A stretch of 64,000 nt of DNA from the IMG/VR virus record IMGVR_UViG_3300022074_000021, positions 12,333 through 76,332 of that record; one strand, 5' to 3'. Origin of the DNA: a virus. Below the pieces are notes generated by a model. It saw only the letters and a program-made list of their open reading frames with translations. It ran no database searches and was not told the origin of the DNA. The position numbers and the translations under genes were made by a program. Of this stretch, positions 46,175 through 62,721 are shown piece after piece; positions within the stretch are counted from its first letter, which is position 1; each line of letters opens with the position of its first letter.

Positions 46175-46235
46175 ATCATTATTTATGTCAAAGGTAGTTG
46201 ATTAATAGGAACTTCATTATAATATATTTGTAATA

Positions 46236-46934
46236 ATGAACGCTCCCATAACATTTAGAGAAAAAGATCATACTTATACTCACAATGAAACTGGTGAGAG
46301 GTTTACATCTGTCACAACATTACTAGGTAAATATAAAAAGCCTTTTGATTCTGACGGTGCTGCAACACGAGTAGCAAAACGAGAAGGCGTTACGAAAGAA
46401 ATGATTCTCGAAATGTGGGAGAAAGAAAAGAATAGAGCCTGTGATAGAGGTACAGAAATTCATAAGCTTTTAGAAGATTATATTACGTTTGGAGATGAAG
46501 CAGATAATTGGGGCTGGTTATATAAAAGTTATGACAAGTCGCGGGAATGGAATATAGATAAATTTGATAGAGTATTGTGTGAGCAGTTAGTATGGAGTGA
46601 AGATTTTAAAGTATCTGGGCTTGCTGATCTAATCTATGAACATAAAGATGGTACGTTTACGGTTGGGGATTTCAAGACTAATAAGAGGTATAGATTTGGA
46701 TCAGATTTTGGAGAGTGGATGCTTGAACCTTTAGATCATTTATCAGTATGTGAACATTCTACGTATACTATGCAACTATCACTATATGCATATCTATACG
46801 AACAAATGACGGGTAAAAAATGTCGTAAGCTTGTTATATATTATTTAAACAAAGATAAGTTTGTAGCCTATCATGGTAATTATATGAAAGCTGAAGTAAA
46901 AGAATTGCTAAAACACTTTTTTTACAATGGTTAA
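46236..46934 (+). CDS. PD-(D/E)XK exonuclease
   Basis: HTY...SVTTLL...RGTEIH...SGLADLI...GDFKT...YTMQLSLY. Confidence 0.8.
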   Translation: MNAPITFREKDHTYTHNETGERFTSVTTLLGKYKKPFDSDGAATRVAKREGVTKEMILEMWEKEKNRACDRGTEIHKLLEDYITFGDEADNWGWLYKSYDKSREWNIDKFDRVLCEQLVWSEDFKVSGLADLIYEHKDGTFTVGDFKTNKRYRFGSDFGEWMLEPLDHLSVCEHSTYTMQLSLYAYLYEQMTGKKCRKLVIYYLNKDKFVAYHGNYMKAEVKELLKHFFYNG

Positions 46935-46967
46935 TTAAAAGTTATTAAATAAATAGCTTTTATACCC

Positions 46968-47171
46968 ATGAAGAAGACGACAATCATTTTTAAACTAGAA
47001 AAATGTATAGATAGATCTTTAGAAGCATTGTATGATGCACGTGATCTTTTAGAAGAGGCAGAAGATATAGAACTAGATCAATTAATAAACGACGTTGTTG
47101 AAGAGTTAGAATGTGATATTGCTGATAAGATTGAAACTATCCGTGAAAGAATAGATAAAATATTTGAATAA
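46968..47171 (+). CDS. Small acidic hypothetical protein
   Basis: ORF track. Confidence 0.55.
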   Translation: MKKTTIIFKLEKCIDRSLEALYDARDLLEEAEDIELDQLINDVVEELECDIADKIETIRERIDKIFE

Positions 47172-48025
47172 TGAGAAAAAAAGTACTTATATTAGGTAGA
47201 GGTTATGTGGGTGACTATATATTAGCTAATATGGCAAAAAATCCTGTAATTGATATTGATGTCTATTCTAAGGCAGAATATGATTACACAGATGAATATT
47301 ACCTACGTGATCTAATCCAAGAGCATCGTTATAATTATCTAATTAATGCTCAAGGCTTTACAGGTCGACCAAACGTCGATCAAGCTGAAGCTATGAAAGA
47401 GGATTGTTGGAAGTATAATGTACAAGTACCTTTGATGTTTAGTAGAGTATGTAAAGATTTGAACGTTCAACCTATCCATATTACATCAGGTTGTATATTT
47501 ACGGGTTACGATAAAGCGTGGAGTGAAGCTGATGAGCCAAACTTTGGTGTATTTAACTCTGATGCGTCGTTTTACTCTACTTGTAAACATGCATTCGAAT
47601 CAGTAAACGACTTCGGCATTACTATACGTATTCGTATGCCATTTTGTAATATTCTCCATGATAGATCATACCTAACTAAGATTCATAAGTATGATAATCT
47701 TATTCAAGCAGTTAATTCTAAAACATATATTCCAGAATTAGTAGACTTTATTGAAACTCTTGTAGAAGACGGTCGTACAGGTACCGATACAATTCACTTC
47801 TGTAACCCGGAGCCTCTCTCTACATCAGATGTTGTTGATATTATGAGAGGGTTTGAATTAGAAAATCTAAATTGGTCATGGGTAGATATTGAAGATCTTA
47901 ACCTTGCAGCTGGTCGTTCAAACTGCACTCTCGATACAACAAAAGTTAAGGAAGAATATGGATATACTTTATCAACAGAACGAGAAGCGTTACAAAAGAG
48001 CTTAGCTGCTATTACAGCTGCTTGA
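47171..48025 (+). CDS. NDP-4-keto-6-deoxy-sugar epimerase/reductase (RmlD-like, NRS/ER type)
   Basis: LILGRGYVG, GFTGRPNVD, SGCIF, FYSTCK, IRIRMP, RSNCTLD. Confidence 0.8.
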   Translation: MRKKVLILGRGYVGDYILANMAKNPVIDIDVYSKAEYDYTDEYYLRDLIQEHRYNYLINAQGFTGRPNVDQAEAMKEDCWKYNVQVPLMFSRVCKDLNVQPIHITSGCIFTGYDKAWSEADEPNFGVFNSDASFYSTCKHAFESVNDFGITIRIRMPFCNILHDRSYLTKIHKYDNLIQAVNSKTYIPELVDFIETLVEDGRTGTDTIHFCNPEPLSTSDVVDIMRGFELENLNWSWVDIEDLNLAAGRSNCTLDTTKVKEEYGYTLSTEREALQKSLAAITAA

Positions 48026-48041
48026 TTAAATAAGTATGTAG

Positions 48042-49565
48042 ATGAGCTTTAATATTTTCGAGAATACTAATCTTGATTTCGATGTGTCGTTAATCAAGAT
48101 GTCACGTACCCGAGATGAAAATAAAACTCTTAAAGATGTAATTGAGAGTACTACACCTATTGAACCTGCTGCAGTACTTAGTTTGGATTTACGTGAATCA
48201 TCTTTGGGGATGGGATTTGTCGGTAGCATTACTATAAATAATAAATTTAAAATATTAGATAATTTAGATATTACTACTAATAGTCCTCATGAGGTTTACA
48301 TTGCAATTAAAATAACAGATCTTGATTTGCAACAGATTGCTGATATACCAGCAGAAGATAAGTGTATCACATTGATCGGATTTATTAATAATACATCGTC
48401 TGGAGCAATTAATATTATTGATACGGTAGTTGTATTTGAATTTGAAGAAGCTTTTATAGCTGCTTTAAAACAAACACAAACCTTGCGTAATTTTTTTAAT
48501 GAAGACAATATTGATGTTATATCTCTTGCAAATAAATTTAATCGACAACTATTTAAATTAGGAAACGAAGATGAAGATATAGTTACGGCCGACTCTGTTA
48601 CACCTAATATAAAGCATAATATTAAAACTGCTTTCAATAATCATGACGGTAATGATCCTAGCGTGTATGATGCAATGCAAGAAATGCTGAAAGAAACAAC
48701 AGCCGGCGAGGTTGTATACGATAAACCAGGCCGGGTCTCCTTTTTTAGGTTTGTTAATCGTCTTTCTGATTTTGAAGATGATAATAGTGAGGTTATTAGA
48801 CAATTGCAGTTTGGACCATTTCTATCAGATAGACATTTACAATTTGTTAGATCAGTTTTAGAAAACAATCTTGATGGTGATTATAGTGATGTATATACAG
48901 AAAAATTTACACTAGGTCCTTTAGCCGAAGCATCCGATGATCCTAGTACAAATTTATACAATAACATTGAATCCTATAATATTAGCCGTGCTAACACTGG
49001 TGAACTAAAAGAGACAATATGGGGAGATTATCGTTTAGATAAAATTATTCCTGGTCAGGACCTATCTATCCCTTCTCCCACTACAAAACGTTTTTCAAAA
49101 ATACAAAAAGACTTTATTAAAATTAATTTACCGGATTTGCCAGTAGGGTTAAATTTACCAGTTTTTATAGATGGAGAGTTAAAAGATTTTCATATAGACT
49201 TTAATGCTACTTCCAGTAATGATGATGTAGACCGGTCTAGAATTCAAAATCAAAACAAAATAGCCAACTTAGTACATAAAAGCTTTTTAACTATAGTAGA
49301 GACAATTACATTTAAGGTCAAAGGTAGTGTAATTAGACGTCCTAATACATTTATTTGGATTGAAAATGGTAAAGAAGAAGAACCATATAAAAAGCTGTGG
49401 TATGTAAATAGTGTCGAACATGTTTTTGCTAGTGGAAAATATACTACAAGCATAGTAGCAACTAAAATATTTGGAAATGTTACGCTAAACGATTTTGGAG
49501 TTAGTCTTGGTGAGATACCATTAGGAGGGACTGATGGTCGACCCGACCGCACCGGTGAGGCTTAA
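48042..49565 (+). CDS. Baseplate hub gp27-like protein
   Basis: C-terminal ITFKVKG...RRP..FI...WYVNSVEHVF..GKYTTSIVATK; TTAAATA upstream. Confidence 0.55.
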   Translation: MSFNIFENTNLDFDVSLIKMSRTRDENKTLKDVIESTTPIEPAAVLSLDLRESSLGMGFVGSITINNKFKILDNLDITTNSPHEVYIAIKITDLDLQQIADIPAEDKCITLIGFINNTSSGAINIIDTVVVFEFEEAFIAALKQTQTLRNFFNEDNIDVISLANKFNRQLFKLGNEDEDIVTADSVTPNIKHNIKTAFNNHDGNDPSVYDAMQEMLKETTAGEVVYDKPGRVSFFRFVNRLSDFEDDNSEVIRQLQFGPFLSDRHLQFVRSVLENNLDGDYSDVYTEKFTLGPLAEASDDPSTNLYNNIESYNISRANTGELKETIWGDYRLDKIIPGQDLSIPSPTTKRFSKIQKDFIKINLPDLPVGLNLPVFIDGELKDFHIDFNATSSNDDVDRSRIQNQNKIANLVHKSFLTIVETITFKVKGSVIRRPNTFIWIENGKEEEPYKKLWYVNSVEHVFASGKYTTSIVATKIFGNVTLNDFGVSLGEIPLGGTDGRPDRTGEA

Positions 49566-49603
49566 TAGTTGATTATTTTATATACCTACATTAATATAAA
49601 CGT

Positions 49604-50173
49604 ATGCATAACCAAGTAGTAGACTCCCATAAGAGTACTGTCTATAAGAAGCTTAAGGCACAAAGTCCTTTAGATGTAGTCGCTTTTACTGCAGGTAACT
49701 TTGATATTATTCACCCTGGTTATACAGCTACGTTTGAAGAGGCTAAAAGACATTGTGATAAGTTCATAGTATTCTTGCATGGTGATCCTTCTGCTACTCG
49801 TAATACAAAATATAGGCCAGTAGTACCATACTACGACCGTTATAAGATGCTCATGTCTATTAAGCATATTGATGAAGTCTATATGTACCAGACAGAAAAA
49901 GAACTTTTAGAGCTTATGAAGACTTTTGATCTTGATGTCCGTATTTTAGGAGAAGATTATCTTGGTAAACCTTTTACTGGTGATGACTTAGACCATGAAG
50001 TTATATATACAACGAGATCACATGAATGGTCTACAACTAAGTTTAAGAATCGTATTGCAGCTATGACTATGATTCAGAATGAGAAGCTACGCAATAGGGT
50101 GTTAGCTCTACTTAACGATGAGGATGCATCAGATGATATACTTAAAGGTGACTTTACAGAATTAGAGAAATGA
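49604..50173 (+). CDS. Cytidylyltransferase-like protein (TagD family)
   Basis: AGNFDIIHPGY, ILGEDY.GKPFTG, RSHEWSTT. Confidence 0.85.
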   Translation: MHNQVVDSHKSTVYKKLKAQSPLDVVAFTAGNFDIIHPGYTATFEEAKRHCDKFIVFLHGDPSATRNTKYRPVVPYYDRYKMLMSIKHIDEVYMYQTEKELLELMKTFDLDVRILGEDYLGKPFTGDDLDHEVIYTTRSHEWSTTKFKNRIAAMTMIQNEKLRNRVLALLNDEDASDDILKGDFTELEK

Positions 50174-51114
50174 AAGAACAATATAATTACCTCGTAACTG
50201 GAGGTGCAGGATTTATTGGCTCACATGTAATCGATGAGCTGCTTAAGCGAGATGACATTTATAGGATATATGTTATTGATAAGCTAGGTATGGGTTCTGA
50301 TATGGATAACGTGGCCGATGATAACCGCGTTAAGTTTATTTTTGAAGATATTGCAAGTGAAATAGCATATGAATATCTTCCCCGGGTTGATTATATTTTA
50401 CATCTAGCTGCTGAGTCACATGTTGATCGATCTATTACCGATCCTCTTGCATGTATAACTAGTAACGTAATGGGTACTGCAAAAGTCTTAGATTTAGCCA
50501 GTACAGATCAGGCAAGACTAGTTCATGTATCTACAGATGAAGTTTATGGTCATCTTCAAATAGATGAACCTCCGTTTACAGAAGAGACTGCATTAGCTCC
50601 TCGTAGCCCTTATTCTGCTACCAAGGCCGGATCGGATCTATTAGTACAGTCATACATTACAACCTATGGTATCAATGCATCAATTACCCGTTGCTGTAAC
50701 AACTATGGTCCAAGGCAAGCTTGTGAGAAGCTTATACCTACAGTAATTGATAAGCTAGTTAAAGATGAGCCTATTCCTATCTATGGTAATGGCCAGAATA
50801 TTCGGGAGTGGATTCATGTTACTGATCATGCTAAAGCTATCATTGAGGTGTTGCATACTGGTCATACTGATACTGTATACAATATTCCGGGTAGCCTCCA
50901 TTTAACTAATCTCGAGATGGTCGATAAGATCATTGAAAAAGTTCTCGAGTTTAAATCAGAGATCAACCCATCAATTGAGTTTGTAGAAGATCGTGCAGGT
51001 CATGATTTTAAATACTCTATAAGTACAAAACACTCTTTAAACTCAGTTAGAGAGCAAAGAGACTTTGATTTAACTGATACAATAGAATATTATTTAAAAA
51101 AACTAGTTGATTAA
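50170..51114 (+). CDS. rmlB: dTDP-glucose 4,6-dehydratase
   Basis: VTGGAGFIGS, HLAAESHVDRSI, VSTDEVYG, PYSATKA, NNYGPRQ..EKLIP, DRAGHD. Confidence 0.92.
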   Translation: MKEQYNYLVTGGAGFIGSHVIDELLKRDDIYRIYVIDKLGMGSDMDNVADDNRVKFIFEDIASEIAYEYLPRVDYILHLAAESHVDRSITDPLACITSNVMGTAKVLDLASTDQARLVHVSTDEVYGHLQIDEPPFTEETALAPRSPYSATKAGSDLLVQSYITTYGINASITRCCNNYGPRQACEKLIPTVIDKLVKDEPIPIYGNGQNIREWIHVTDHAKAIIEVLHTGHTDTVYNIPGSLHLTNLEMVDKIIEKVLEFKSEINPSIEFVEDRAGHDFKYSISTKHSLNSVREQRDFDLTDTIEYYLKKLVD

Positions 51115-51144
51115 AAAATAAACGTAGATAAAATATAATATATT

Positions 51145-51333
51145 ATGGGTAAGAAGACATTTCCACGTAAACCTTTTAGGTTCGGTAAATTTATTATCGA
51201 ATATAAAGAGTGTCCAAAGAGCCCGGTTCATTTCTTGAAGGAAGAAATAAATACAGCGGCAGAAGCAGAGAGTGTAGCCAACCGGTTAAAACAGCAAGGA
51301 TACGATAAGGTATTAATTAAGCAGGTAGGTTAA
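51145..51333 (+). CDS. Hypothetical protein
   Basis: ORF track; TTGATT...TAAAAT sigma70-like promoter upstream. Confidence 0.55.
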   Translation: MGKKTFPRKPFRFGKFIIEYKECPKSPVHFLKEEINTAAEAESVANRLKQQGYDKVLIKQVG

Positions 51334-51617
51334 TGATTAATGGCAGTGATTTAGAAAATATGACCTGTATACACCGGAAGCATTTTAGCGATATCGGTCT
51401 ACCAAAAGAAGGTACAATAGTTAGTATATACTACAAATATGATAAGAGTTATAATCAGTTGCTTATAAATGATTATTCAATACAATTAGTAGTAGATGGA
51501 AGAGTTGGTAATAATGTAGCAGATAAAAATAATATTATATCTAGTGAAGTTTACGATTTTTTTTTTAAAACAACTTATATGGAATTACTTAAACACGTTT
51601 TAACACAAATAAAATAA
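51333..51617 (+). CDS. Hypothetical protein
   Basis: ORF track; TAATG coupling. Confidence 0.5.
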   Translation: MINGSDLENMTCIHRKHFSDIGLPKEGTIVSIYYKYDKSYNQLLINDYSIQLVVDGRVGNNVADKNNIISSEVYDFFFKTTYMELLKHVLTQIK

Positions 51618-51620
51618 ATA

Positions 51621-51800
51621 ATGGAAGCAAATATTAATAACTTTCTATTTAAATTAGATAGAAAAAATAATACTATTGAAATATACTTTGGTTCTGAAGC
51701 TGAAAGATTATATGGCTTTATTAAAGTCAAACCAAATATATCTGAAAAGGAGTTTCATTTTGAAATCTCTGATTGGTTTATTAATAATGCAAATGGTTAA
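51621..51800 (+). CDS. Hypothetical protein (59 aa, MEANINNFLFK...)
   Basis: Manual translation; fills the intergenic gap. Confidence 0.5.
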   Translation: MEANINNFLFKLDRKNNTIEIYFGSEAERLYGFIKVKPNISEKEFHFEISDWFINNANG

Positions 51801-51834
51801 TTGCATTTAACCGTTTAGCGTATAAAATATACAT

Positions 51835-52299
51835 ATGAAACCAATATGCCTTATTATTGCATTAGCCGTAGTGTCCATTGTAGTATCATTAGTAGTTAAA
51901 AAAGAGCCAGTTTTTACTGGTAAAGAATATAATGGAGAATTAATTAATGCTAATTTATTTGAAAATCCGGTTACATTTACTGATCATGATGGTAATTTGG
52001 TAGATGGTTATGCAGTAAGATATTATCCAGGTACAGAGCAGGTATATTCCAAAGCTAGTTTTAAAGATGGATTTATGCATGGCCCGTTTCTTTCTTTTTG
52101 GGATAATGGTCAAGTACAGATGACGATGGTTTGGGAAAACGGTACACATTACAAAAAAATGAGCTCCTGGGATCGGAATGGTAAGCGTTTGAAAGGCTCT
52201 GCTGATGACCAAATTAAACAGATTAGAAATATGGATAAAGATTTAGGAGAGAAAATGGATGAATTGGAAAAGACTAAATTAGAACTTAGTATCTATTAA
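51835..52299 (+). CDS. Membrane-anchored MORN-variant repeat protein
   Basis: N-terminal TM segment; YYPG...FKDGFMHGPFLSFWDNGQ. Confidence 0.65.
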   Translation: MKPICLIIALAVVSIVVSLVVKKEPVFTGKEYNGELINANLFENPVTFTDHDGNLVDGYAVRYYPGTEQVYSKASFKDGFMHGPFLSFWDNGQVQMTMVWENGTHYKKMSSWDRNGKRLKGSADDQIKQIRNMDKDLGEKMDELEKTKLELSIY

Positions 52300-52340
52300 T
52301 TAGTTTACTCTAATAGGAACTCTGATATAATAATGGAGTA

Positions 52341-52592
52341 ATGAAGATAGTATATTGTGAATGTGGAAGTCTGGTTAGACCTGCGCGGGTAGAAGCTGGC
52401 TTTACTAACTGTATTAGGTGCGCTAATGAGAATCCTGTTGAACCTCCGAAAGGTCGTATGGTATATACTGGTAAGGTCGGGGCTGAGATAGAGATTATGT
52501 CTGCTGAGACTTGGCGTGAGAATAAAGGTTACTTTATACCTAAAGGTGGTCGTAGCTGTGTTAAAAACTTTAGTAAAAATGTCTGCGCGTAA
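52341..52592 (+). CDS. DksA/TraR-like C4 zinc-finger protein
   Basis: CECG.....ARVEAG...CIRCA. Confidence 0.55.
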   Translation: MKIVYCECGSLVRPARVEAGFTNCIRCANENPVEPPKGRMVYTGKVGAEIEIMSAETWRENKGYFIPKGGRSCVKNFSKNVCA

Positions 52593-52839
52593 ACATAAAC
52601 AAAACCAGGCTCGTAGAATGGCGCAAGGTCATTATACGAAAGATGCATTTTTCTTTATTCAAGACTTGCATGAATGTTTAATGATGAATAAAGTTGAAGA
52701 GTTTTCTCAGACCGATGCGCGATATGCTCAACGTTTATTAGAAGAGTTAGATGAAATAAGACCAGCTCTTCAAAAGCTAGCTAATAATCATTCAGCTAAT
52801 ATGCCTGAAGAATTTATTACTAACTGGAAAGATCTTTAA
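52579..52839 (+). CDS. Hypothetical protein
   Basis: ORF track (likely start MSARKHK). Confidence 0.5.
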   Translation: MSARKHKQNQARRMAQGHYTKDAFFFIQDLHECLMMNKVEEFSQTDARYAQRLLEELDEIRPALQKLANNHSANMPEEFITNWKDL

Positions 52840-52861
52840 GGAACTCCGATATAATAATAGT

Positions 52862-53131
52862 ATGAACCCAACAAGAGAAGATCTAATTGAGCTTGGCTAT
52901 CTTAAACCTGGTGATAAGTACTGTAAGATTCCTAAACGTATACGTAAGATCTTTCTTACAGAGAGTGATCTAGAGTATGCTAAGCGTCATGGACTTACTC
53001 GTCAAGAGATGAAAGATTTTAAAGAAGAAATGATGATTGAAGATGAAATTATTCAAGATCATCATATGCTAGCAGCTAAAGACAAAGAAGATAACTTTAA
53101 TTCACCTCAAGCGCATTACTTTGCATGGTAA
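52862..53131 (+). CDS. Hypothetical early protein
   Basis: Preceded by the AGGAACT-N4-TATAAT promoter. Confidence 0.6.
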   Translation: MNPTREDLIELGYLKPGDKYCKIPKRIRKIFLTESDLEYAKRHGLTRQEMKDFKEEMMIEDEIIQDHHMLAAKDKEDNFNSPQAHYFAW

Positions 53132-53472
53132 TAAAATCCTTTAATAAAAAAACAGGTAAGCGTTATGGTGATTGCGCGCCTAGGTATAGTAAATCTTGGG
53201 AGCTTCATCAAGACGGAGAGGTATTTATTTTAAAAGTAGATGGAGAGCCAGAAGAAATACTAGAATTAACTGAACGCTCATTGTATTATTTTATTACAAA
53301 GAAAGGTAAGAAAACGATGCAGTTGCTTGAAAGTAAACAGTTTAGGAATTGGCAATATACTTTATGGCATTCGGGTGATGTATGGGACTATGCACCCTAT
53401 CTAACTAAGTTAGAGCGAGATATGCTGACATATGGAAATGCTCAATGGAGCTTATTAGATAATTTAGATTAA
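53125..53472 (+). CDS. Hypothetical protein
   Basis: ORF track. Confidence 0.55.
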   Translation: MVIKSFNKKTGKRYGDCAPRYSKSWELHQDGEVFILKVDGEPEEILELTERSLYYFITKKGKKTMQLLESKQFRNWQYTLWHSGDVWDYAPYLTKLERDMLTYGNAQWSLLDNLD

Positions 53473-53787
53473 ATGAGTACAAAATGGCACGGTGGTAAAG
53501 GTGATAAAAGTAGAATCACAAAATACGAGAGATACGCAGATAATTACGATAATATTTTTATCAATAAGGCAGTAGCTACACATGATATATGGGGTATAAT
53601 CGGTCATGTTGATATTATAGAAGGGGATACAGTTTCCTTTAAATGTATTGATACAGAGGTAAGAGTTGAAGTAATTGCAGAGGCTCCCGATAAGTACGGT
53701 GAAGCTAGCGGTAACGCAGGAAACCCTTTTCATGTATCGCGTGATATATTTGAAAAAAAATATAAACCTTATTTAAAAACTCTTTAA
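53473..53787 (+). CDS. Hypothetical protein (WHGGKGDKSR...Y.DNYDNIF N-terminus)
   Basis: ORF track. Confidence 0.55.
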   Translation: MSTKWHGGKGDKSRITKYERYADNYDNIFINKAVATHDIWGIIGHVDIIEGDTVSFKCIDTEVRVEVIAEAPDKYGEASGNAGNPFHVSRDIFEKKYKPYLKTL

Positions 53788-53799
53788 TGTACAACAAAT

Positions 53800-54054
53800 A
53801 TGGAGATGATGGTTATAGGATTTGCTATTGCAATTATATTAGTAACTGCAATACCATATATATTATGGAAGATTATATCTATACTACCTAATCTACTATG
53901 GGTATGTTCAAAAGTTGCAACGTTTATAATTATATTTGGAGCTATTGTATTTTGTATTAGTTGGTTAAGCTATATAGAGGGTACAAAACTTAATAATAAA
54001 ACTGAATATGCTCCTAAAAAACCTATTATTGAAAACATAAATGAAAAAAAATAA
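53800..54054 (+). CDS. Small membrane protein
   Basis: Two hydrophobic segments. Confidence 0.5.
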   Translation: MEMMVIGFAIAIILVTAIPYILWKIISILPNLLWVCSKVATFIIIFGAIVFCISWLSYIEGTKLNNKTEYAPKKPIIENINEKK

Positions 54055-54204
54055 AACAACAAACGCATCTTTGGGTCGTGATTATTTCTTAAATGCATTA
54101 CCTAATGATTTGGATAAAAAGCAAGCAGTACGTAAAGATGTAACTGTAGATGAAAATACACTAAAAGAGCTTCAAGCTCTAGGATTAATTAACAAACCTA
54201 AATA

Positions 54205-54456
54205 ATGTTTAAACATATTAAAGAAATGCTAGAAAGTGGGCAAGTGATACATGTAGAATTCACTAAAAAGAATGGCGAAACACGTAAAATGAACTGCACG
54301 ACTAATCTCAATCTAATTCCAGAGTGTATGCACCCATCTGAAGATCGAATGAGCTACATAAAAGAAGATGTAATTAGAGCATATGATATTGATGTTCACG
54401 GGTGGCGATCATTTAGAGTAGATTCTGTAAATATTCTTGAGTCAAAGGAACTCTGA
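54205..54456 (+). CDS. WYL_2/SH3-like phage protein
   Basis: VEFTKKNGETRKMNCT...YDIDVHGWRSFRVDSV. Confidence 0.75.
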   Translation: MFKHIKEMLESGQVIHVEFTKKNGETRKMNCTTNLNLIPECMHPSEDRMSYIKEDVIRAYDIDVHGWRSFRVDSVNILESKEL

Positions 54457-54467
54457 TATAATTAGGT

Positions 54468-54726
54468 ATGCAAAAGAAAGAAGAAATTCCAGAAGAGGTT
54501 ATCAACTACTGTATTGAAAATAAGGTAAGTATTGTAGAAGGTCTCCAAGTAATTGCTGAACGTAAAATACAAAGTTTGGAAGATGATATCGCTACTCTTA
54601 AAAAGAATGCGCTTGATAATATTTTCTCGTTGAAGAAAGCTATTTCCTCAGTAGATAAGCTTAGTAAAGAAGATATGGATGATGTTGAGTCGTTTCTTGA
54701 TTTTTTAGATAAAAATGTTCAGACTA

Positions 54727-54734
<8 letters not shown>
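54468..54734 (+). CDS. Hypothetical early protein
   Basis: AGGAACT-N4-TATAAT promoter upstream. Confidence 0.55.
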
Positions 54735-55361
<627 letters not shown>

Positions 55362-55381
<20 letters not shown>

Positions 55382-55736
55382 GACAGCAATTATGATTGCT
55401 GCACTGACACTCACTGCTAACGCAAGTGACCATCACGATGAGAAAAAAGGTCCTAAAGGTAAACCTGCAAAGGTTGACGGTAAGCGCAAGCTTCCGCCTG
55501 ATATGGCCAAGTTCGATAAGAATAAAGATGGAAAACTATGTGAAGTTGAACGTAAAGCTGCACGGGATGCTTTTATAAAGAGGTTCGATAAGAACAAAGA
55601 TGGTAAGCTTGACGAGAAGGAGCGTAACGCTGCTAGAGCTGAACGTCGCAAGAGTTTAAAAAAACCTAAAGGTAAAGGTAAACAACCTAAAGGACCTAAA
55701 GGTAAAGGTAAGCCTGAGCAGAAGAAAGGTAAGTAA
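55362..55736 (+). CDS. Secreted EF-hand protein, Lys-rich tail
   Basis: Signal peptide; two KFDKNKDGKL..ERxAAR EF-hand-like repeats. Confidence 0.75.
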
Positions 55737-55997
55737 ATGAACAAAGACCTGAGTACGTCTAAAAACTACTCCTTTTTTAATACTGTGAAAGGATTCAATC
55801 AGATCCACGTGATAGCAAAAGATAGAGGGTTCAAATATGAGAAGATAGCCGATACACCTGATTTTAATGGTGAGAGTGCTGCCTTAAAATATTGGGAAGC
55901 TAATAAAGAACGACTTATTGATACAAATTTTTATAATGATAAGATCGTTATTGTTAGAAAAGAAATACATAATACATGCATAAAGAGGTTAAATTAG
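55737..55997 (+). CDS. Hypothetical protein
   Basis: ORF track. Confidence 0.5.
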   Translation: MNKDLSTSKNYSFFNTVKGFNQIHVIAKDRGFKYEKIADTPDFNGESAALKYWEANKERLIDTNFYNDKIVIVRKEIHNTCIKRLN

Positions 55998-56139
55998 ATA
56001 AACTCGATAGAGTTATCTATACTAAAACTGTTGAAGAAGGATTTATTTGTGAGCATTGGTATGAGTATACCGATACTGGTGAACAAATTCTTGTAAAAGT
56101 ATTTGAAGAATCAATACCTATAGATTATATCGAGCATAT

Positions 56140-56625
56140 TTAAAATAAGTATTTAAGAATAAGTTCTTCTTCTGTGAGAATTTTTTCACCTTCATCTTCC
56201 TGTACAGAGTCAAAACCTTCTTCATACTCTTCATAATAAGAATAAATATCATCCGCATCTGCCTCATAACTAAATGAGGATGATCCCTTTGAGGTTTGTA
56301 TAACTTCATACTTATCTTTAATACCTGCTACTATTAATTGTTTAAGCAATTTTGGACCAGTTTCTTTATCAGCCCGAGCTATAAAATCTTTAACTTGATT
56401 ACTAGTAAATTTACCTTTAAGAGTTAAAATAGGGTCATCATAAAGCCCCCAAACATGTATAGCCAGATATTGTCTTGTAATATCTGCACAATCTCTTATA
56501 ACATAATATGCAGATTTTTTCTTTACTTCTATACCAGTATCAGGTTTTTTATGAGCTCTTTCTGCAGGACCGTAAAGCTTAGCTATTTGCTCCTTGCTAT
56601 TATCTAAGATTACATCTTCAAACAT
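56140..56625 (-). CDS. Hypothetical late protein
   Basis: CTAAATA 6 nt upstream; the only clear minus-strand gene in the early array. Confidence 0.6.
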   Translation of the reverse strand: MFEDVILDNSKEQIAKLYGPAERAHKKPDTGIEVKKKSAYYVIRDCADITRQYLAIHVWGLYDDPILTLKGKFTSNQVKDFIARADKETGPKLLKQLIVAGIKDKYEVIQTSKGSSSFSYEADADDIYSYYEEYEEGFDSVQEDEGEKILTEEELILKYLF

Positions 56626-56691
56626 ACATATATTTAGTCTCTCCCGTAAAATTAATGGATATCCATAAGGAACTTCAATATAATTAGGTTG

Positions 56692-57144
56692 ATGATATTA
56701 TTAGACCCGTCTCCTAGCATCAAAAAGCATACGAAGATTGACTTTAATCTTCTTAGTCAACTACTTACTACTTTACTTGAATCCAATCATAAACGAGATA
56801 TCAATATTGTAGCGAAGATTCATAAGAGTAGAATCGCCGGTACATCGCTATGTACTCATGTAGATGGCTGTAGATTCTTGATTAACTTAGACGTCTCAAA
56901 TATTAAGAGACGCTACATATTCAGTTCTATTTTGCATGAGTTGCGACATTGTGTACAGAAGAATCTATTCGGGTATTGGCCTGATACTCACGCTATGAAG
57001 ACTTGGAAGGATTACTGGTATTCAAAAGAAGAGATAGATGCTCGTAAGATGGAGAAGCTTACAACACAGATGATTAAAGCATATGACTCGATGATTAACA
57101 TGGGTGTTCAGTTCAAGAAGTATAATCTAAACAAGATCGGATAA
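56692..57144 (+). CDS. Putative zinc metallopeptidase
   Basis: ILHELRHCVQ plus downstream EIDAR. Confidence 0.65.
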   Translation: MILLDPSPSIKKHTKIDFNLLSQLLTTLLESNHKRDINIVAKIHKSRIAGTSLCTHVDGCRFLINLDVSNIKRRYIFSSILHELRHCVQKNLFGYWPDTHAMKTWKDYWYSKEEIDARKMEKLTTQMIKAYDSMINMGVQFKKYNLNKIG

Positions 57145-57461
57145 GGAACCTCAGTATAATAAGAGTATGAAACAAGAAGATAGACAGTTTTTCGAAAATG
57201 TAGTTTTTGGATGTGTAATTATCCTCATACTAGTTCTAGTAGCTATATCAATTTTACCTAAATAAACAAATGCCTGAACCAGTTGAATCAAAAAGCAATA
57301 AACATTTCCGAATATCGTTAGTTAAATCATTCTTACGAATAGTTGGATGTGCTGCAGCATTAACTCCATTAGGAACTAACGAATCAATCATAGCTCTAGC
57401 CGTATCATTCCTCGCAGCTGAGATATTAGGAATTTTTGAGGAACTCTAATATAATATAAAT

Positions 57462-57665
57462 ATGAAGTACGACATTGTATTCAAGACAAAAGAAGCATTC
57501 AACGCAGCTAAAACCCTTCTCACTCATCATTATGCTTGCCGTTTCAATGATCTTAATGATTATAGAATTGAATTTTATCTAGAGGGTAGGCGTGAGACGG
57601 CTAAAAAAATGCTACAAGATGTAAATGCTGTTGAAGAAGTTAACATGAAGTTTGTAACTACTTAA
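57462..57665 (+). CDS. Hypothetical early protein
   Basis: AGGAACT-N4-TATAAT promoter upstream. Confidence 0.55.
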   Translation: MKYDIVFKTKEAFNAAKTLLTHHYACRFNDLNDYRIEFYLEGRRETAKKMLQDVNAVEEVNMKFVTT

Positions 57666-57684
57666 GGAATTTTAGTATAATAAT

Positions 57685-58095
57685 ATGAACAATACCATTA
57701 AACATTTAGACAACGGTGATTTCGAAGTGATAAAAAACACTCCATCTGCTGAAACTCTTGAATCAGGGAAGCCTAGATTCAATAAAGATGATAAGGCGGC
57801 AAAGAAGTTGTTTACGGATGTTCAGCTAGCCTACGAAACTCTTATCTTAGCTAAAGTGGAAGCTGCTCCTGCATTTGGGTTATCTACTCCTCAAGCAATT
57901 CAGAAAGCTGATGCCGCTTATGAAGAGTATGATGAGTTAGTTGACATTGTGGTTAAGGCTACAGGCGGAAATGCTCCAGCCTTTTTTACTGACCCACAAA
58001 CAGTTGATCTATTTGAGATTGCAGGTACTGATTGTCGAGGCATGACATATAATGAGATGGCTGAACTAGAAGGCTCTATTGCTTTTGGAAATTAA
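57685..58095 (+). CDS. Hypothetical early protein
   Basis: Variant AGGAATT-N4-TATAAT promoter upstream. Confidence 0.6.
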   Translation: MNNTIKHLDNGDFEVIKNTPSAETLESGKPRFNKDDKAAKKLFTDVQLAYETLILAKVEAAPAFGLSTPQAIQKADAAYEEYDELVDIVVKATGGNAPAFFTDPQTVDLFEIAGTDCRGMTYNEMAELEGSIAFGN

Positions 58096-58221
58096 ATTAA
58101 TATGAAACTAAATATAATACTACCACTAATAATTATTGCAATAGTGTTAATCTTAACCGGTTGCACATGAAGTACATGTTAGATCCTCAGTGGGGATAAG
58201 GAACTCTGATATAATTAAAGT

Positions 58222-58407
58222 ATGAAAAGGGATAAGTACTTAGTAATCGTAAGCTTTAAAGGACGTGTTGAGCGTATTGTTGTAGAAGCTACCTCTAGAC
58301 CAGATGCTGAGAATGTTGTTTATGAGAAGAAAAAGCATTTGTTTGATCATGATGTTATTCACGGTACTAGCACGATTAGTATTATGTCTTCTCGTAGAAT
58401 GTCTTAA
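58222..58407 (+). CDS. Hypothetical early protein
   Basis: Promoter motif upstream. Confidence 0.55.
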   Translation: MKRDKYLVIVSFKGRVERIVVEATSRPDAENVVYEKKKHLFDHDVIHGTSTISIMSSRRMS

Positions 58408-58551
58408 TTGCTTGATACTTAAAGGAACTAATATATAATATAATTATGAACATCGAAAAGCTAAAGGATAAATTAATTGTACTATGGATTATAACAGTTT
58501 CTCTATATATAGGGGTAGATTTACTTCAAAAATTTAACTAAAATTAACATT

Positions 58552-58612
58552 GGGGGTGACATTGGGTTCGACGTAAAAAATACGGATGAGGGTTCAAATC
58601 CCTCCACCTCCA
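58552..58612 (+). ncRNA. Minimal tmRNA-like RNA (tRNA-like domain only)
   Basis: GGGGGUG/CACCUCC-A acceptor with G3:U70 and A73; unpaired D-like ACAUUGGGUUCGAC; CGUA-AAAAA-UACG hairpin; GGAU linker; T-arm GAGGG-UUCAAAU-CCCUC. Confidence 0.75.
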
Positions 58613-58974
58613 TTAATAAATACTAATATGGCATTTGAACATTTACATCTTGATAATTTAGGTAGAATTATCTACAAAATCGCTAGATCATTCGGTTATA
58701 CAGAAGAGTGGTGGTTTTCCTACGATGGCCAGAGCAACAGAACAATCGAAAAATATATTAAAGAGAAAAAGCCATTTTAAAGTGAAAAAACTATTAAAAG
58801 CTTTTAAAAATAAAAAGAATCGTAAAATAGATTACGATCAAGAGCTGGATAGTTTTAGACAAATGGTAATAGATCTTCACCTTAAAATAACTAGGCTAGA
58901 GAAAGAAAATCGTAGATTGAAACGGATTATTAAAAAACTCTCGGAAATATAAGGAACTTCATTATAATAAATAT

Positions 58975-59259
58975 ATGAAAAAAGATATTTACAGAGTTCA
59001 AATTAAGCCTAGCTATTCTGTATATACCAAAAATGGTTCTAATCATAGAATACATGGGCCGGCCTTAACAATTGGTACTGATGAGTATTTTTACATTAAC
59101 GGTAAACGATTAACTTTATCCGGTCACGAGGATTACGTAAGAAGTTATTTTGTTCACCATGAGTGCTTTAGTTTGGAAAAAGAATGTTTTCAAAAAGCTT
59201 TAAATTCTCCTGATGGTATATTTGTTCATAATTTAGAGTTAACTGAAAATGCAAAATGA
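58975..59259 (+). CDS. Hypothetical protein (HRIHGPA...YFYING motif)
   Basis: Promoter motif upstream. Confidence 0.55.
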   Translation: MKKDIYRVQIKPSYSVYTKNGSNHRIHGPALTIGTDEYFYINGKRLTLSGHEDYVRSYFVHHECFSLEKECFQKALNSPDGIFVHNLELTENAK

Positions 59260-59443
59260 TGATCCTTTTGCCCTAGGTTGGTATTTAGAAATTGTGCATT
59301 TAGGAGAAAATTTAATTTCTGAAAGTAAGCACATAGAAGGTCCTTTTTTAACTCAAGCCGATGCTGAACATCGTAAGGAAACAATTCTTACTAAAAATGA
59401 AAATATACACGCAAAGTTAACTATTAATCTTATAATGTTGTAA
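59249..59443 (+). CDS. Hypothetical protein
   Basis: ORF track. Confidence 0.5.
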   Translation: MQNDDPFALGWYLEIVHLGENLISESKHIEGPFLTQADAEHRKETILTKNENIHAKLTINLIML

Positions 59444-59447
59444 TATT

Positions 59448-59756
59448 ATGCTAAAATATAAAAAGAATAGTAAAGTTAGTTGGGTAGATAAATCAGATCG
59501 TATTGCAGAGATAGCCAATCTAGCGGAGTTAATTAAAGATGGTGAAGAAGAGCATCTAGATCATTACAATGATTTAGTACTTAGTTATGCTAAAGACACT
59601 AACATGCAAGCTTCAGCCTCTGAGACTGATCCTATTGCTTGGGATTTATTTTGTGAGTTGGCTGGTGGTGATCCAGGTAAGATAGTTTATGCTGGTGGTA
59701 GGAGAGGTTTAAACTATCTAGAAATGGTTAAATTTAATCGAGGCTATTGGCGATAA
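59448..59756 (+). CDS. Hypothetical protein
   Basis: ORF track. Confidence 0.55.
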   Translation: MLKYKKNSKVSWVDKSDRIAEIANLAELIKDGEEEHLDHYNDLVLSYAKDTNMQASASETDPIAWDLFCELAGGDPGKIVYAGGRRGLNYLEMVKFNRGYWR

Positions 59757-59850
59757 ATAAAAATGGACCCTATACCCACTATCACTCTAGCTGTTGTAAT
59801 TATTGAGCTTGTTATATTGGTATTACTCTTTAGGTCTAATAAATAATTAC

Positions 59851-60087
59851 ATGAAGACCTTACTTATACTATTAGCTTGTTGCTTAATTAGTTGCGAGGG
59901 AGGATATAGCTCATATACGTACCAATCCGTTCCATCAACTACTGTACGCACTTATAGAAGCTACACACCTGCTTATTATTATGCTCCTAGGAGAGTAATT
60001 TATTCTCCACCAATAGTTAGATATCAATATAGAGCACCTCGATATTACAGTGTTACAACAAGAAGTTATAGAAGAAAGTGTCCGTAA
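59851..60087 (+). CDS. Small lipoprotein-like Tyr/Arg/Pro-rich protein
   Basis: MKTLLILLACCLISC lipobox-like sequence; ATAAATA 6 nt upstream. Confidence 0.5.
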   Translation: MKTLLILLACCLISCEGGYSSYTYQSVPSTTVRTYRSYTPAYYYAPRRVIYSPPIVRYQYRAPRYYSVTTRSYRRKCP

Positions 60088-60171
60088 AGATAAGTTTGTA
60101 GTTACACGAGAATACAACCAGATTATTGTTTCCTTAACAACAAACATAAGGAACTTACATATAATAAGAGT

Positions 60172-60369
60172 ATGAAAGAAAAGCTTAAAAAGTTTGTTGA
60201 GACTGGTGAGCATGTGTTTCTCGATATCTGCCCTCGACGAGATAGTGAAATATGGTCAGAAGAAGGAGTTATCAAGAATCTCGATGCTAATGGTTGGTTT
60301 CAGATTGAGTTTATGGGATCTACTAACGGATGGCATGTTAATCAGATCGTAAACATATTAACAGATTGA
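60172..60369 (+). CDS. Hypothetical early protein
   Basis: Promoter motif upstream. Confidence 0.55.
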   Translation: MKEKLKKFVETGEHVFLDICPRRDSEIWSEEGVIKNLDANGWFQIEFMGSTNGWHVNQIVNILTD

Positions 60370-60635
60370 AGTTTTCACCAAATTATGGTGCGTCAAGTGA
60401 GTATATCAAACACGGTTAAGCGATAGAATAAGACGTTAAATAATGAACTATCGTGGGAGTAAGGGTGCCCTCAGAGAAAGACCCTAAATTTTAAGGAACT
60501 TAGATATAATTAGATATGCCCGAAGAACAAGAGATTAGAGATATTGTCGAAGAAATGCTTGATACAGTAGAACGTGAGATTGAGTTTGATGGACGAGGAC
60601 TTTAGGAACTACATTATAATATAGAAACAAAATAT

Positions 60636-60745
60636 GGCCCGGTCATCTAACTGGGAAGACCCACCCGGTAGCAATGCTAGCAAGGCTACAACAAGGCGAC
60701 GGCTAAGTATGGGAGGTAATGCAGGTTCAATACCTGCTCGGGCCT
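60636..60745 (+). ncRNA. tRNA-like RNA with 44-nt insert in place of the anticodon loop
   Basis: Acceptor GGCCCGG/UCGGGCC-U; D-arm AUCU-AACUGGGA-AGAC; stem CACCC/GGGAG; T-arm GCAGG-UUCAAUA-CCUGC; own promoter at 60604-60620. Confidence 0.65.
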
Positions 60746-60855
60746 GCTCTTGGATAGGTTAACACCGAACAACGAGTGCGCCAAAAACTTCGCGCCTACA
60801 AGCCTTTTACGAGGTGGAGTCCAAGTGGGAGTAAAGAACTACGATATAATAAGGT

Positions 60856-61125
60856 ATGAAAGAGAGTAAGTATGTTGTTGTAGCTTATACTAAGACAAAG
60901 ACTAATGTACTCAAAGCTCTTAACCTCTGCATTCATGAAGTAAAGGATGAAGTACAGAACGTATGGGTAGAAAAGGTAGTACCAGTCAATAGAGAGCGTA
61001 AGAATGAGATGGTTAATGGATGGACGCCTGGAACAGTAGAGTTTGATAGTGCATGGCGAGATACAGACCCAAGTGATAGGCCGATAAAATGCATTGTACA
61101 TACAGTAAAAGGAACTCGAATATAA
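60856..61125 (+). CDS. Hypothetical early protein
   Basis: Variant AAGAACT-N4-TATAAT promoter upstream. Confidence 0.55.
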   Translation: MKESKYVVVAYTKTKTNVLKALNLCIHEVKDEVQNVWVEKVVPVNRERKNEMVNGWTPGTVEFDSAWRDTDPSDRPIKCIVHTVKGTRI

Positions 61126-61132
61126 TAATAGT

Positions 61133-61627
61133 ATGAACGATACCGTTGGAAAGAACTATATTGCTGTTAAAGGAAGAGATACTCTTAGAAAGATTGTTGT
61201 TGTATCGCCACGCGTGGTGCTCACAGAATGTGAATACAAAGAGCTGGGCTGGAGATACGAGCTCTGGCCATCTGAGCCATCTGAGACCTGGCTTAACTTC
61301 AGCTATTCTGATGAGCGGTTGAAGGATGTTAATAGCAAGATGCTCTTGATGTCTAACCTTCTACGAGTTCAACTCGAGACAGAGAAGCAAGAGAATGAGA
61401 TGAGACTCAAGGAGATCAATAAGACTCTAGAGCTGATTGCATTAGGTATGGAAGCAGAACAAAACAAATTACTAGGAGTTAGCGAGAACGGCAAGGATCT
61501 CTGTATTAGTTGTGGAGAAGAATCCGATTACAGTTATGATACTCATATAGACTATAGAGTAGGTTATGTTGAGGGTGCAGGACAGTTATGTAAAGCATGT
61601 TACGCTAATGTGGATAAGGAACTCTAA
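61133..61627 (+). CDS. Hypothetical protein with C-terminal C4 zinc-ribbon
   Basis: CISCG...THIDYRVGYVEGAGQLCKAC. Confidence 0.6.
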   Translation: MNDTVGKNYIAVKGRDTLRKIVVVSPRVVLTECEYKELGWRYELWPSEPSETWLNFSYSDERLKDVNSKMLLMSNLLRVQLETEKQENEMRLKEINKTLELIALGMEAEQNKLLGVSENGKDLCISCGEESDYSYDTHIDYRVGYVEGAGQLCKACYANVDKEL

Positions 61628-61638
61628 TATAATTAGGT

Positions 61639-61908
61639 ATGAAAGAGATTGAGAATGATGTTAAGCAGCTAGAAGAAGAAGTAAGCTCTCTTGTTGATAA
61701 GGTTATTGCTCTTAGAGCAGAGCTAGAGTCTCATGAGAGTCTCATTGTTAAGAAAGACCAGCTCATTGCTGAAATTCAGGAAGTGCGTTGGGCTCAAGAC
61801 CAGACCATTGCTGAACTTCATGCATGGAGTAAGAAACTTGAAGAGGATCAAGTTAAGAAGGATAAGACCATTGCAGATCTCCACGGAGTATTAGTAGCAT
61901 CTAAGTAG
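61639..61908 (+). CDS. Coiled-coil hypothetical protein
   Basis: Heptad pattern; promoter motif upstream. Confidence 0.55.
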   Translation: MKEIENDVKQLEEEVSSLVDKVIALRAELESHESLIVKKDQLIAEIQEVRWAQDQTIAELHAWSKKLEEDQVKKDKTIADLHGVLVASK

Positions 61909-62211
61909 AAATAGTATATAATAATACAATGAACGCGCACTTAAAAGCAATTAAGAAAAAACATGAAGCACTTGGAGATATCGCTAGAGCGGATCTAGAA
62001 ACATATCTAAATAATCAAGTAGCTATCGGAGAGCATCCTGATCTGGGAGTAGAAATCGAAAAGAAAGTAGAAACTATTGCCCACCATAATGAAGTTGTTG
62101 AAACGATTGATGACCTTATTGCGGGTCATTAACTTAAGGTAGATTGAAGATAAAGTGAGATTACCTGTTGCAGATCTCCACGGATTATTAGTAGCAGCTA
62201 AGTAGAAATAG
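61871..62211 (+). repeat. 44-bp direct repeats (61871-61914 and 62168-62211) flanking ORF 61929-62132
   Basis: ttgcagatctccacgga(g/t)tattagtagca(t/g)ctaagtagaaatag, 2 mismatches. Confidence 0.9.
61929..62132 (+). CDS. Conserved-type small phage protein (YLNNQVAIGEHPD)
   Basis: ORF track; flanked by 44-bp direct repeats. Confidence 0.6.
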   Translation: MNAHLKAIKKKHEALGDIARADLETYLNNQVAIGEHPDLGVEIEKKVETIAHHNEVVETIDDLIAGH

Positions 62212-62215
62212 AATT

Positions 62216-62476
62216 ATGATTAAGACATATACAAATGAAGCCACTCTATTCGGTGTTATTGCACTTGTAGTAGTATCGTGGCAAGCATGGCTGATTCACT
62301 CACTTACCAGTGTATCGACCATTAGAACACAAGTAGAAGTACAGGAAGAACAAAATTATCATGTTATCGACGCATCATATATCGACCATACAGGTAAGTA
62401 TGATGATTGTGTTGAATATGCAGATAGTTACAAGAATCATCACGAGTATATCGTAGTATCTAGTAAGGAACTTTAA
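62216..62476 (+). CDS. Membrane-anchored hypothetical protein
   Basis: N-terminal TM segment. Confidence 0.5.
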   Translation: MIKTYTNEATLFGVIALVVVSWQAWLIHSLTSVSTIRTQVEVQEEQNYHVIDASYIDHTGKYDDCVEYADSYKNHHEYIVVSSKEL

Positions 62477-62487
62477 TATAATTAGGT

Positions 62488-62700
62488 ATGAAAGAAAGTA
62501 AATGCTACAAGTTGATTAAGCACTATGGCGTGGATCATAATGAAAGCGTAGTAGCGGTATCACATGATACAGAGAAGCTTCATCAGGCTCTAAAGGTAGT
62601 TAATGTTAAAGGGTGGGAGGTCTTATCTGAAAATCAACTCGAATGGGCGCATCAGAAAGAAGGGAACTACTTTGCAATTGCTCCAATCACTTACCTTTAG
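62488..62700 (+). CDS. Hypothetical early protein
   Basis: Promoter motif upstream. Confidence 0.55.
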   Translation: MKESKCYKLIKHYGVDHNESVVAVSHDTEKLHQALKVVNVKGWEVLSENQLEWAHQKEGNYFAIAPITYL

Positions 62701-62721
62701 GAACTCCGATATAATAATAGT

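Follow-up and report, generated by a model that had tools for sequence, protein, structure and literature searches.

What does a T4-like phage do with a tmRNA from which everything but the tRNA-like domain (TLD) seems to have been removed? The question is raised by 61 nt at positions 58552–58612 of a 64,000-nt stretch of viral DNA, called the window here (positions 12,333 to 76,332 of the IMG/VR virus record IMGVR_UViG_3300022074_000021), in which a sequence-only reading had recognized the two ends of ssrA joined by a short hairpin. Bacteria rescue their ribosomes mainly by trans-translation, which is also a drug target. The source record has 76,332 bp and is rated 36% complete by CheckV, from which the whole genome is estimated at ~210 kb. 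Its tail sheath and large terminase are of T4 type, and among cultured phages the sheath comes closest to that of marine pelagiphages (~44% identity across its C-terminal third); the phage is a marine T4-like myophage with a genome of the lytic T4 type. No tRNA gene, SmpB gene, or integrase gene was found in the 76-kb record, which covers ~36% of the genome, and a megablast search of the region against cultured phages gave no match. Near-identical DNA is present in marine, seawater, and viral metagenome runs from 12 studies, and a contig of a separate study carries the mini-tmRNA unchanged.

The Rfam tmRNA model RF00023 matched 58552–58615 (+) with 59.5 bits (E 8.9e-21), the curated gathering cut-off being 47 bits. 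The match spans model positions 1–374, with 5 nt in place of 316 internal positions, which is the picture of two matched ends and a large internal deletion that the sequence-only reading had predicted for this search. A degenerate pattern for both tmRNA ends matched once in the window and in 0 of 100 shuffles. The minimum-energy fold (-20.7 kcal/mol) is the expected tRNA-like domain, while the folding energy of the 61 nt is not exceptional by itself (z -1.48), and the identity of the element rests on the model match together with the comparison with relatives. ARAGORN made no call at 58552–58612 when the window was scanned, a distant blastn search with the element returned T-arm-sized matches only, and Rfam at a permissive threshold found nothing credible besides the mini-tmRNA within 54–64 kb.

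The mini-tmRNA (58552–58612, +) runs for 61 nt from G1 to the discriminator A73. The 5' strand of its acceptor stem (GGGGGUG, 58552–58558, +) forms seven of seven pairs with 58605–58611 and has G3 at 58554; the 3' strand (CACCUCC) and A73 occupy 58605–58612 (+), with U70 at 58609 and A73 at 58612, and the alanine identity elements G3:U70 and A73 are thus intact, as had been read. An unpaired D-loop analogue (58559–58571, +) on the tmRNA pattern GA...GG.UUCGAC, with the conserved GG and UUCGA, matches all of the upper-case Rfam consensus. The absence of a D stem, also pointed out before, is correct, but it is normal in every tmRNA. Next comes a stub of helix P2 (58570–58586, +) with G.A and A.G pairs at its base (58570/58586 and 58571/58585), followed by four Watson–Crick pairs (58572–58575 with 58581–58584) and an AAAAA loop (58576–58580), so that the CGUA/UACG hairpin of the earlier reading is present in the minimum-energy fold. 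Because the Rfam structure places the GAC before and the GGA after this hairpin in helix P2a, as the P2 base of G.A, A.G, and C–G pairs, the hairpin is to be regarded as a capped P2 stub. The two halves are separated by only 13 nt (the 4-bp hairpin and its 5-nt loop). The T arm (58588–58604, +), invariant in the four closest relatives, has a 5-bp stem (GAGGG/CCCUC) and a 7-nt loop (UUCAAAU) that fits the tmRNA loop UUCRANU, and it leads directly into the acceptor 3' strand. Directly after A73 the sequence reads UUA (58613–58615, +) at the CCA position, and CCA is therefore not encoded, in agreement with the first description. The element has no mRNA-like domain, that is, no resume codon, tag reading frame, or stop codon, and it also lacks the pseudoknots PK1–PK4 and the long helices P2/P5.

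Four other IMG/VR contigs (L010, L044, L053, and L076) are collinear with the window at ~80–86% nucleotide identity and carry a mini-tmRNA at the same place. The copies of L010, L044, and L053 have 2 substitutions per 61 nt (~3%), compared with 13–17% in the 1.2-kb flanks, and they share with the window an identical T arm and acceptor 3' strand. The hairpin stem is 4, 5, or 6 bp long among the relatives, through paired indels that keep the closure, and none of the four contigs encodes CCA. The copy in L076 (4772–4833 of contig IMGVR_UViG_3300025120_000744) starts with C, so that position 1 faces C72 in a C1 x C72 mismatch like that of initiator tRNA, and also has U replacing C in UUCGAC and one T-loop change; it scores 49.6 bits, above the Rfam cut-off, and was not picked up by the strict pattern scan. 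This variant may reflect relaxed constraint, a sequencing variant, or a tolerated form. A distant relative, L031, which has 18 proteins in common with the window (29–76% identity), carries a 60-nt mini-tmRNA among other neighbouring genes, with an intrinsic terminator and a GGAACT-N4-TATAAT box of its own immediately upstream. The differences of its acceptor stem (GGGGCGG) and hairpin from those of the window are compensating, and CCA is encoded in this copy, as in both tRNA genes of the same contig.

A scan for the 3' half of the window's element found four close relatives only, all of them short forms. The records of the five relatives each gave one short Rfam tmRNA match above the cut-off (49.6–65.6 bits) and contained neither a full-length nor a fragmentary tmRNA detectable with Rfam. 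Judging from sequence comparison, the mini-tmRNA is a maintained gene and not a scar, because it is kept in the relatives, has fewer substitutions than its flanks, and changes its stems in a compensating manner. The earlier argument for a maintained structure, as opposed to an att-site scar, therefore stands: both halves are conserved in six related phage records, no integrase was found in the 76-kb record, and the five relatives have short forms only, not the full-length tmRNA or decaying fragment that would have spoken against this reading.

Short forms of this kind extend well beyond the window's lineage. A pattern consisting of the 5' half and the T arm with a gap of 8–38 nt found 56 IMG/VR loci, and widening the gap to 39–69 nt added 16 (72 in total); the acceptor 3' strand lay outside the search pattern. 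These 72 loci comprise 54 distinct sequences of 59–107 nt, with peaks at 59–69 and 74–83 nt, among which the 61 nt of the window rank third shortest (only forms of 59 and 60 nt are shorter). Each of the distinct sequences (54/54) forms seven acceptor pairs and has U70 facing G3 as well as A73. C72 is invariant as well, though outside the pattern, and a G and an A on the 3' side of the P2 base occur in 55/55 sequences, though the pattern did not require them. Such invariance of U70, A73, C72, and the P2-base G and A in positions left free by the search argues that alanine charging and the SmpB-side junction are selected, beyond the shape of the molecule. CCA is encoded in 16/54 distinct sequences.

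Because some 5' ends were wrongly placed when nine short forms were aligned with MAFFT (A2), this alignment was replaced by a seed of six short forms (A3), from which the covariance model R1 was built, and by the model-based alignment (A4). R1 matches all 72 loci and the window (77.2 bits for the latter). In A4, an alignment that is itself fitted to the model, 99.5% of 960 stem cells are standard pairs, compared with 44–57% when the partners are slid by 1–3 columns, and 273 stem cells are changed on both sides, with a covariation score of 0.641 versus 0.05–0.10, figures to which the same caveat applies. Covariation is seen across the family at acceptor positions 5 and 6 and in three of the five T-stem pairs. 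A conserved short form with covariation, for which the sequence-only reading had proposed to look in related phages, was thus found, and in those relatives its stems change only in compensating ways.

Outside the lineage of the window the short forms occur in unrelated phage contexts, and the extreme reduction therefore probably arose more than once. About one-third of the family loci have nearby tRNA genes, and mini-tmRNAs lie inside or adjoin same-strand tRNA arrays in L016 (800–876, with a 1-nt gap to the neighbouring tRNA-Ile gene), L045 (340–417), L028 (3456–3534), L054 (5376–5455), L062, and L064. The same pattern gave 10 hits in 185,579 bacterial and archaeal species (one genome each), mostly on short contigs of metagenome-assembled genomes; set against 56 viral loci, this indicates that the form is mainly viral. 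In seven unrelated loci (L019, L032, L037, L046, L051, L055, and L073) the mini-tmRNA was observed within a few kb of a large terminase gene, assigned by weak similarity (23–32% identity) to the TerL of the window, and the family is therefore not confined to early regions. ARAGORN, run on 53 family loci, called tRNAs but no mini-tmRNA. It also reported a 343-nt 'tmRNA' with an implausible 30-residue tag in L058 (2976–3318), around the 3' end of an 82-nt mini-tmRNA (3234–3315); the longer call is probably a false gene model. The members of the 74–83-nt class (L003, L006, L013, L021, L047, L068, and the element of phage DS6A, L092:28478–28557) have a common connector design, in which the P2 stem is followed by a purine-rich run (AAAGCC, AAGACC) and then by a small inner hairpin, and which is missing in the window's form. 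This connector has the appearance of an additional conserved element, perhaps left over from pseudoknot 1 or serving as a second SmpB contact.

The kind of RNA described here is already published, with one phage example in the literature that we searched. Mycobacteriophage DS6A is listed with a 'TLD only' tmRNA, 'little more than the TLD' (Hudson, Lau and Williams, 2014, PMC4131195), which has the tmRNA Website identifier tmID 11587. R1 locates the DS6A element end to end (JN698994, 28478–28557, 80 nt, 38.4 bits), between gp33 and gp34, where it is unannotated in the GenBank record. Like the DS6A element, the RNA of the window is phage-encoded and TLD-only, with a G3:U70 acceptor stem, A73, a T arm, no tag frame, and no encoded CCA. 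Unlike it (80 nt, with a longer P2 stem around an inner hairpin), the window's RNA has 61 nt with a capped stub of 4 bp, and the sequence similarity between the two is confined to the conserved core; DS6A is a temperate siphovirus of an actinobacterium and has an integrase, whereas the window belongs to a ~210-kb marine T4-like myophage. A similar TLD-only molecule, whether or not chargeable, strongly inhibits tmRNA, perhaps through SmpB titration, according to PMC4131195 (Mao et al., 2009, cited there), and the 2025 update of the tmRNA database credits the expressed DS6A form with tmRNA inhibition in E. coli (PMC11915505).

Natural and artificial counterparts are also known outside phages. 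CDS-less tmRNAs occur in jakobid mitochondria (PMC11915505; PMC3590771) and, at ~65 bp, in the plastids of Mallomonadaceae (PMC11915505). Like the window's RNA, these organellar forms have lost the mRNA-like domain and have ~65 nt, and they probably still work with SmpB. The CDS-less form is the sole tmRNA of jakobid mitochondria and of some plastids, where it is found alongside SmpB (PMC11915505; PMC3590771), and being the only tmRNA of their compartment such molecules cannot be competitors. They descend vertically from the ancestor of the organelle, and we liken them to the window's RNA by description. Laboratory TLD fragments of ~60 nt bind SmpB in crystal structures (PMC3929946), one of them consisting of the 5' 25 nt and the 3' 34 nt of Thermus thermophilus tmRNA with a UUCG loop (PDB 2CZJ; PMC3929946), and alanine transfer on ribosomes and template-free polyalanine synthesis in vitro by SmpB and a TLD fragment are mentioned in the same article (Shimizu and Ueda, 2006, in PMC3929946). 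The design is almost the same, with both tmRNA ends joined by a short capped P2 stub in ~60 nt; the laboratory fragments are man-made from bacterial tmRNA, whereas the RNA of the window is natural and conserved, with an AAAAA loop and no encoded CCA. Full-length tmRNAs are known from the mycobacteriophage Bxz1 group and Bacillus phage G, a two-piece tmRNA from pelagiphage Mosig and methylophage Melnitz (PMC9004378), and full-length tmRNA genes from related marine myophages (PMC9004378). The window's RNA shares with ssrA (RF00023) the alanine-identity acceptor stem, the D-loop analogue, the G.A junction, and the T arm, but unlike ssrA and the full-length phage tmRNAs it has no resume codon, tag frame, stop codon, or pseudoknots, and so it cannot template a tag. 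Beyond the papers on DS6A, the organellar forms, and the laboratory fragments, no phage-wide family of TLD-only RNAs was found in full-text searches.

The mini-tmRNA sits in a block of small ORFs on the same strand, which looks like an early host-takeover region. A predicted promoter (TTGATA-16-TATAAT, 58412–58439, +) agrees with the sigma-70 consensus at 11/12 positions and contains an AGGAACT box (58423–58429) that ends 4 nt before TATAAT (58434–58439). GGAACT-N4-TATAAT occurs in 17 copies within 46–63 kb (46208–62716), all on the + strand, including the copy at 58424. The extended box, (A/T)AGGAACT-N4-TATAAT, lies 5–8 nt (in one case 13 nt) upstream of the ATG of most small ORFs, for example at 58200, 58424, 58953, and 60605, and most sites are without a -35 TTGACA. 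The box looks like a phage-specific promoter class. At such a spacing there is hardly space, if any, for a leader or a Shine–Dalgarno sequence, so that leaderless mRNAs are a possibility. Between the promoter and the RNA gene lies a hydrophobic small ORF of 31 aa (58446–58541, +), which is conserved in L010, L044, and L053 with mostly third-position changes; in L076 it is cleanly deleted, with the promoter 13 nt before the RNA gene, and the RNA can therefore do without it. A promoter of its own thus stands directly before the mini-tmRNA in two relatives (L031 and L076). Downstream is a 50-aa ORF (58628–58780, +) that has no promoter box of its own, is conserved in the relatives, and matches no Pfam or PHROG family. 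The spacers measure 10 nt from the 31-aa ORF to the RNA gene and 15 nt from the RNA gene to the 50-aa ORF. No terminator-like site was found within 57.0–60.5 kb, and the ten neighbouring ORFs matched no Pfam or PHROG family, save for one sub-threshold match. Public RNA runs, from libraries that may contain DNA, gave three short low-depth contigs (58587–58745, 59106–59308, and 59394–59564), none of which spans the mini-tmRNA or shows its ends.

Our preferred reading, to which we give a probability of about 0.5, is that the mini-tmRNA acts as an early, alanine-charged, SmpB-binding competitor of host tmRNA and suppresses tagging. Sequence, structure, conservation, covariation, and family membership are its observed basis; transcription, processing, charging, SmpB binding, and the effect on the host are what these lead us to expect. 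The enzymes that handle the top half of tRNA, namely RNase P, RNase Z/BN, the CCA-adding enzyme, alanyl-tRNA synthetase (AlaRS), and EF-Tu, should accept such a molecule. The RNA would be transcribed early from the AGGAACT/TATAAT promoter. Host RNase P would mature its 5' end and host RNase Z/BN together with the CCA-adding enzyme its 3' end, and the host AlaRS would charge it through G3:U70 and A73. The charged RNA would then bind host SmpB and EF-Tu and compete with host tmRNA for SmpB and for stalled non-stop ribosomes, where nascent chains would receive alanine but no ssrA degradation tag, there being neither resume codon nor tag frame, and on balance trans-translation and tagging would be suppressed in the infected host. 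That 54 divergent sequences strictly keep A73 and the weaker G:U pair argues that charging matters, and if charging matters the RNA presumably reaches the ribosome with SmpB and does not merely soak it up; it has to compete with the tmRNA that the host itself makes, and since the phage RNA has no tag frame, the outcome would be a loss of ssrA tagging. The element is kept in L076 despite the deletion of the upstream ORF and in L031 with compensating changes, and the family is much commoner in viral than in cellular sequence, with many members beside or inside same-strand tRNA arrays. The reported inhibition of tmRNA by TLD-only RNA (PMC11915505; PMC4131195), the binding of ~60-nt laboratory fragments to SmpB and their activity on ribosomes (PMC3929946), and the maturation of CCA-less precursors by RNase BN/Z and the CCA-adding enzyme (PMC4014445) all agree with a charged competitor. 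Against it, CCA is not encoded in the window's lineage, yet it is encoded in L031 and its two tRNA genes, so that charging would depend on host 3' processing; the C1 x C72 mismatch and the UUCGAC change of L076 could mean relaxed constraint; inhibition was reported 'whether or not chargeable' in PMC4131195, and charging may thus be unneeded for it; and related marine myophages carry full-length tmRNA (PMC9004378), so that phages may want rescue and not inhibition.

Rescue of stalled ribosomes without tagging and a decoy for SmpB and AlaRS had been the two roles proposed in the sequence-only reading, and they are our two leading options as well. In the rescue scheme, which we regard as possible but rather unlikely, the Ala-charged mini-tmRNA, with host SmpB and EF-Tu, would accept the nascent chain on non-stop ribosomes, and the ribosome would come free through peptidyl-RNA drop-off and Pth, through release of the ArfB type, or through more rounds of alanine addition; the phage would gain recycled ribosomes during the destruction of host mRNA, with no proteins tagged. 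The invariance of U70 and A73 in all 54 sequences argues for charging and hence for ribosome entry here too, but we know of no release mechanism in bacteria that follows transfer to such a mini-RNA, and no ArfB- or Pth-like gene is recognizable among the neighbouring ORFs, which match no family. The polyalanine synthesis by SmpB and a TLD fragment (PMC3929946), the organellar CDS-less tmRNAs that serve as sole tmRNA with SmpB (PMC11915505; PMC3590771), and the full tmRNA genes of related marine myophages (PMC9004378) would fit rescue, while TLD-only RNA is reported to inhibit tmRNA and not to replace it (PMC11915505; PMC4131195). Between release of the ribosome and a block, the reports of inhibition favour block. 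A bolder version, which we think a little more doubtful again, would make the 61-nt RNA not a mere inhibitor but a working minimal trans-translation RNA that, charged with alanine, ends non-stop translation with host SmpB in a template-free manner, adding one or several alanines; the short alanine tail might itself be a degradation signal. If this were true, the phage would replace the host tagging system with a cheaper one of its own, and the mRNA-like domain would be shown to be dispensable for ribosome rescue in a bacterial cell.

Whether charging is needed at all is the point on which an uncharged sponge would differ, an RNA that only sequesters host SmpB, perhaps along with RNase R or other partners of tmRNA, with no need of aminoacylation or ribosome entry. 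That CCA is unencoded in the window's lineage though encoded in L031 and its tRNA genes would suit such a sponge, as would the C1 x C72 mismatch of the L076 variant, which should weaken EF-Tu binding. However, G3:U70 and A73 are kept in 54/54 sequences, though G:C would be more stable and these positions are not SmpB contacts, and RNase Z/BN and the CCA-adding enzyme routinely mature the products of tRNA genes that lack CCA (PMC4014445), which leaves the sponge improbable in our opinion. Slightly more improbable still is a tRNA-like role apart from trans-translation, for example as an RNase P/RNase Z signal for cutting an early polycistronic transcript or as a nuclease decoy, for instance for a host nuclease that attacks tRNA or tmRNA. 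The element does lie between two small ORFs of one unit with no terminator nearby, and 2 kb further downstream this early region contains another, different RNA with a tRNA shape; but a processing signal would not need the tmRNA D-loop, the G.A junction, G3:U70, and A73 across 54 sequences, and the copies of L031 and L076 follow immediately on a promoter of their own instead of lying between ORFs. Finally, tmRNA genes are common phage integration sites and ssrA fragments do occur in phage genomes (PMC4131195; PMC9004378), so that the element could conceivably be a piece of a host tmRNA gene of the attP type or a tmRNA pseudogene in decay. An attP-type fragment would show one end of the gene, usually the 3' end, beside an integrase, whereas here both ends are present and perfectly paired, the element is more conserved than its flanks with compensating stem changes, no integrase is found in the 76-kb record of a genome of lytic T4 type, and no relative has a longer or broken copy; this reading is extremely improbable and already close to refuted.

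The natural 61-nt RNA appears to have been pared down to just those elements that alanine charging and SmpB binding require, all of which it retains. It is close to the smallest natural TLD, with only the 59- and 60-nt forms of our collection being shorter. What sets it apart is the extreme reduction, the setting in an abundant marine T4-like phage, and the clear signs of selection. The TLD-only design is now seen in dozens of unrelated uncultured phages, including a cosmopolitan marine T4-like phage, which suggests that interference with, or takeover of, host ribosome rescue is a common phage strategy. Because ARAGORN misses them and the DS6A copy is unannotated in GenBank, mini-tmRNAs can go unlabelled in phage genomes.

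The second small RNA candidate of the region (60636–60746, +) has ~110 nt and a promoter box of its own at 60605. Neither ARAGORN nor Rfam made a call on it. It has 53–56% GC within a region of 33% GC, and a conserved GC-rich stretch continues to ~60830. Its 7-bp acceptor stem (GGCCCGG/UCGGGCC) has no G3:U70, a T arm is present, and a long folded interior replaces the anticodon arm. Across five relatives the candidate shows two substitutions only.
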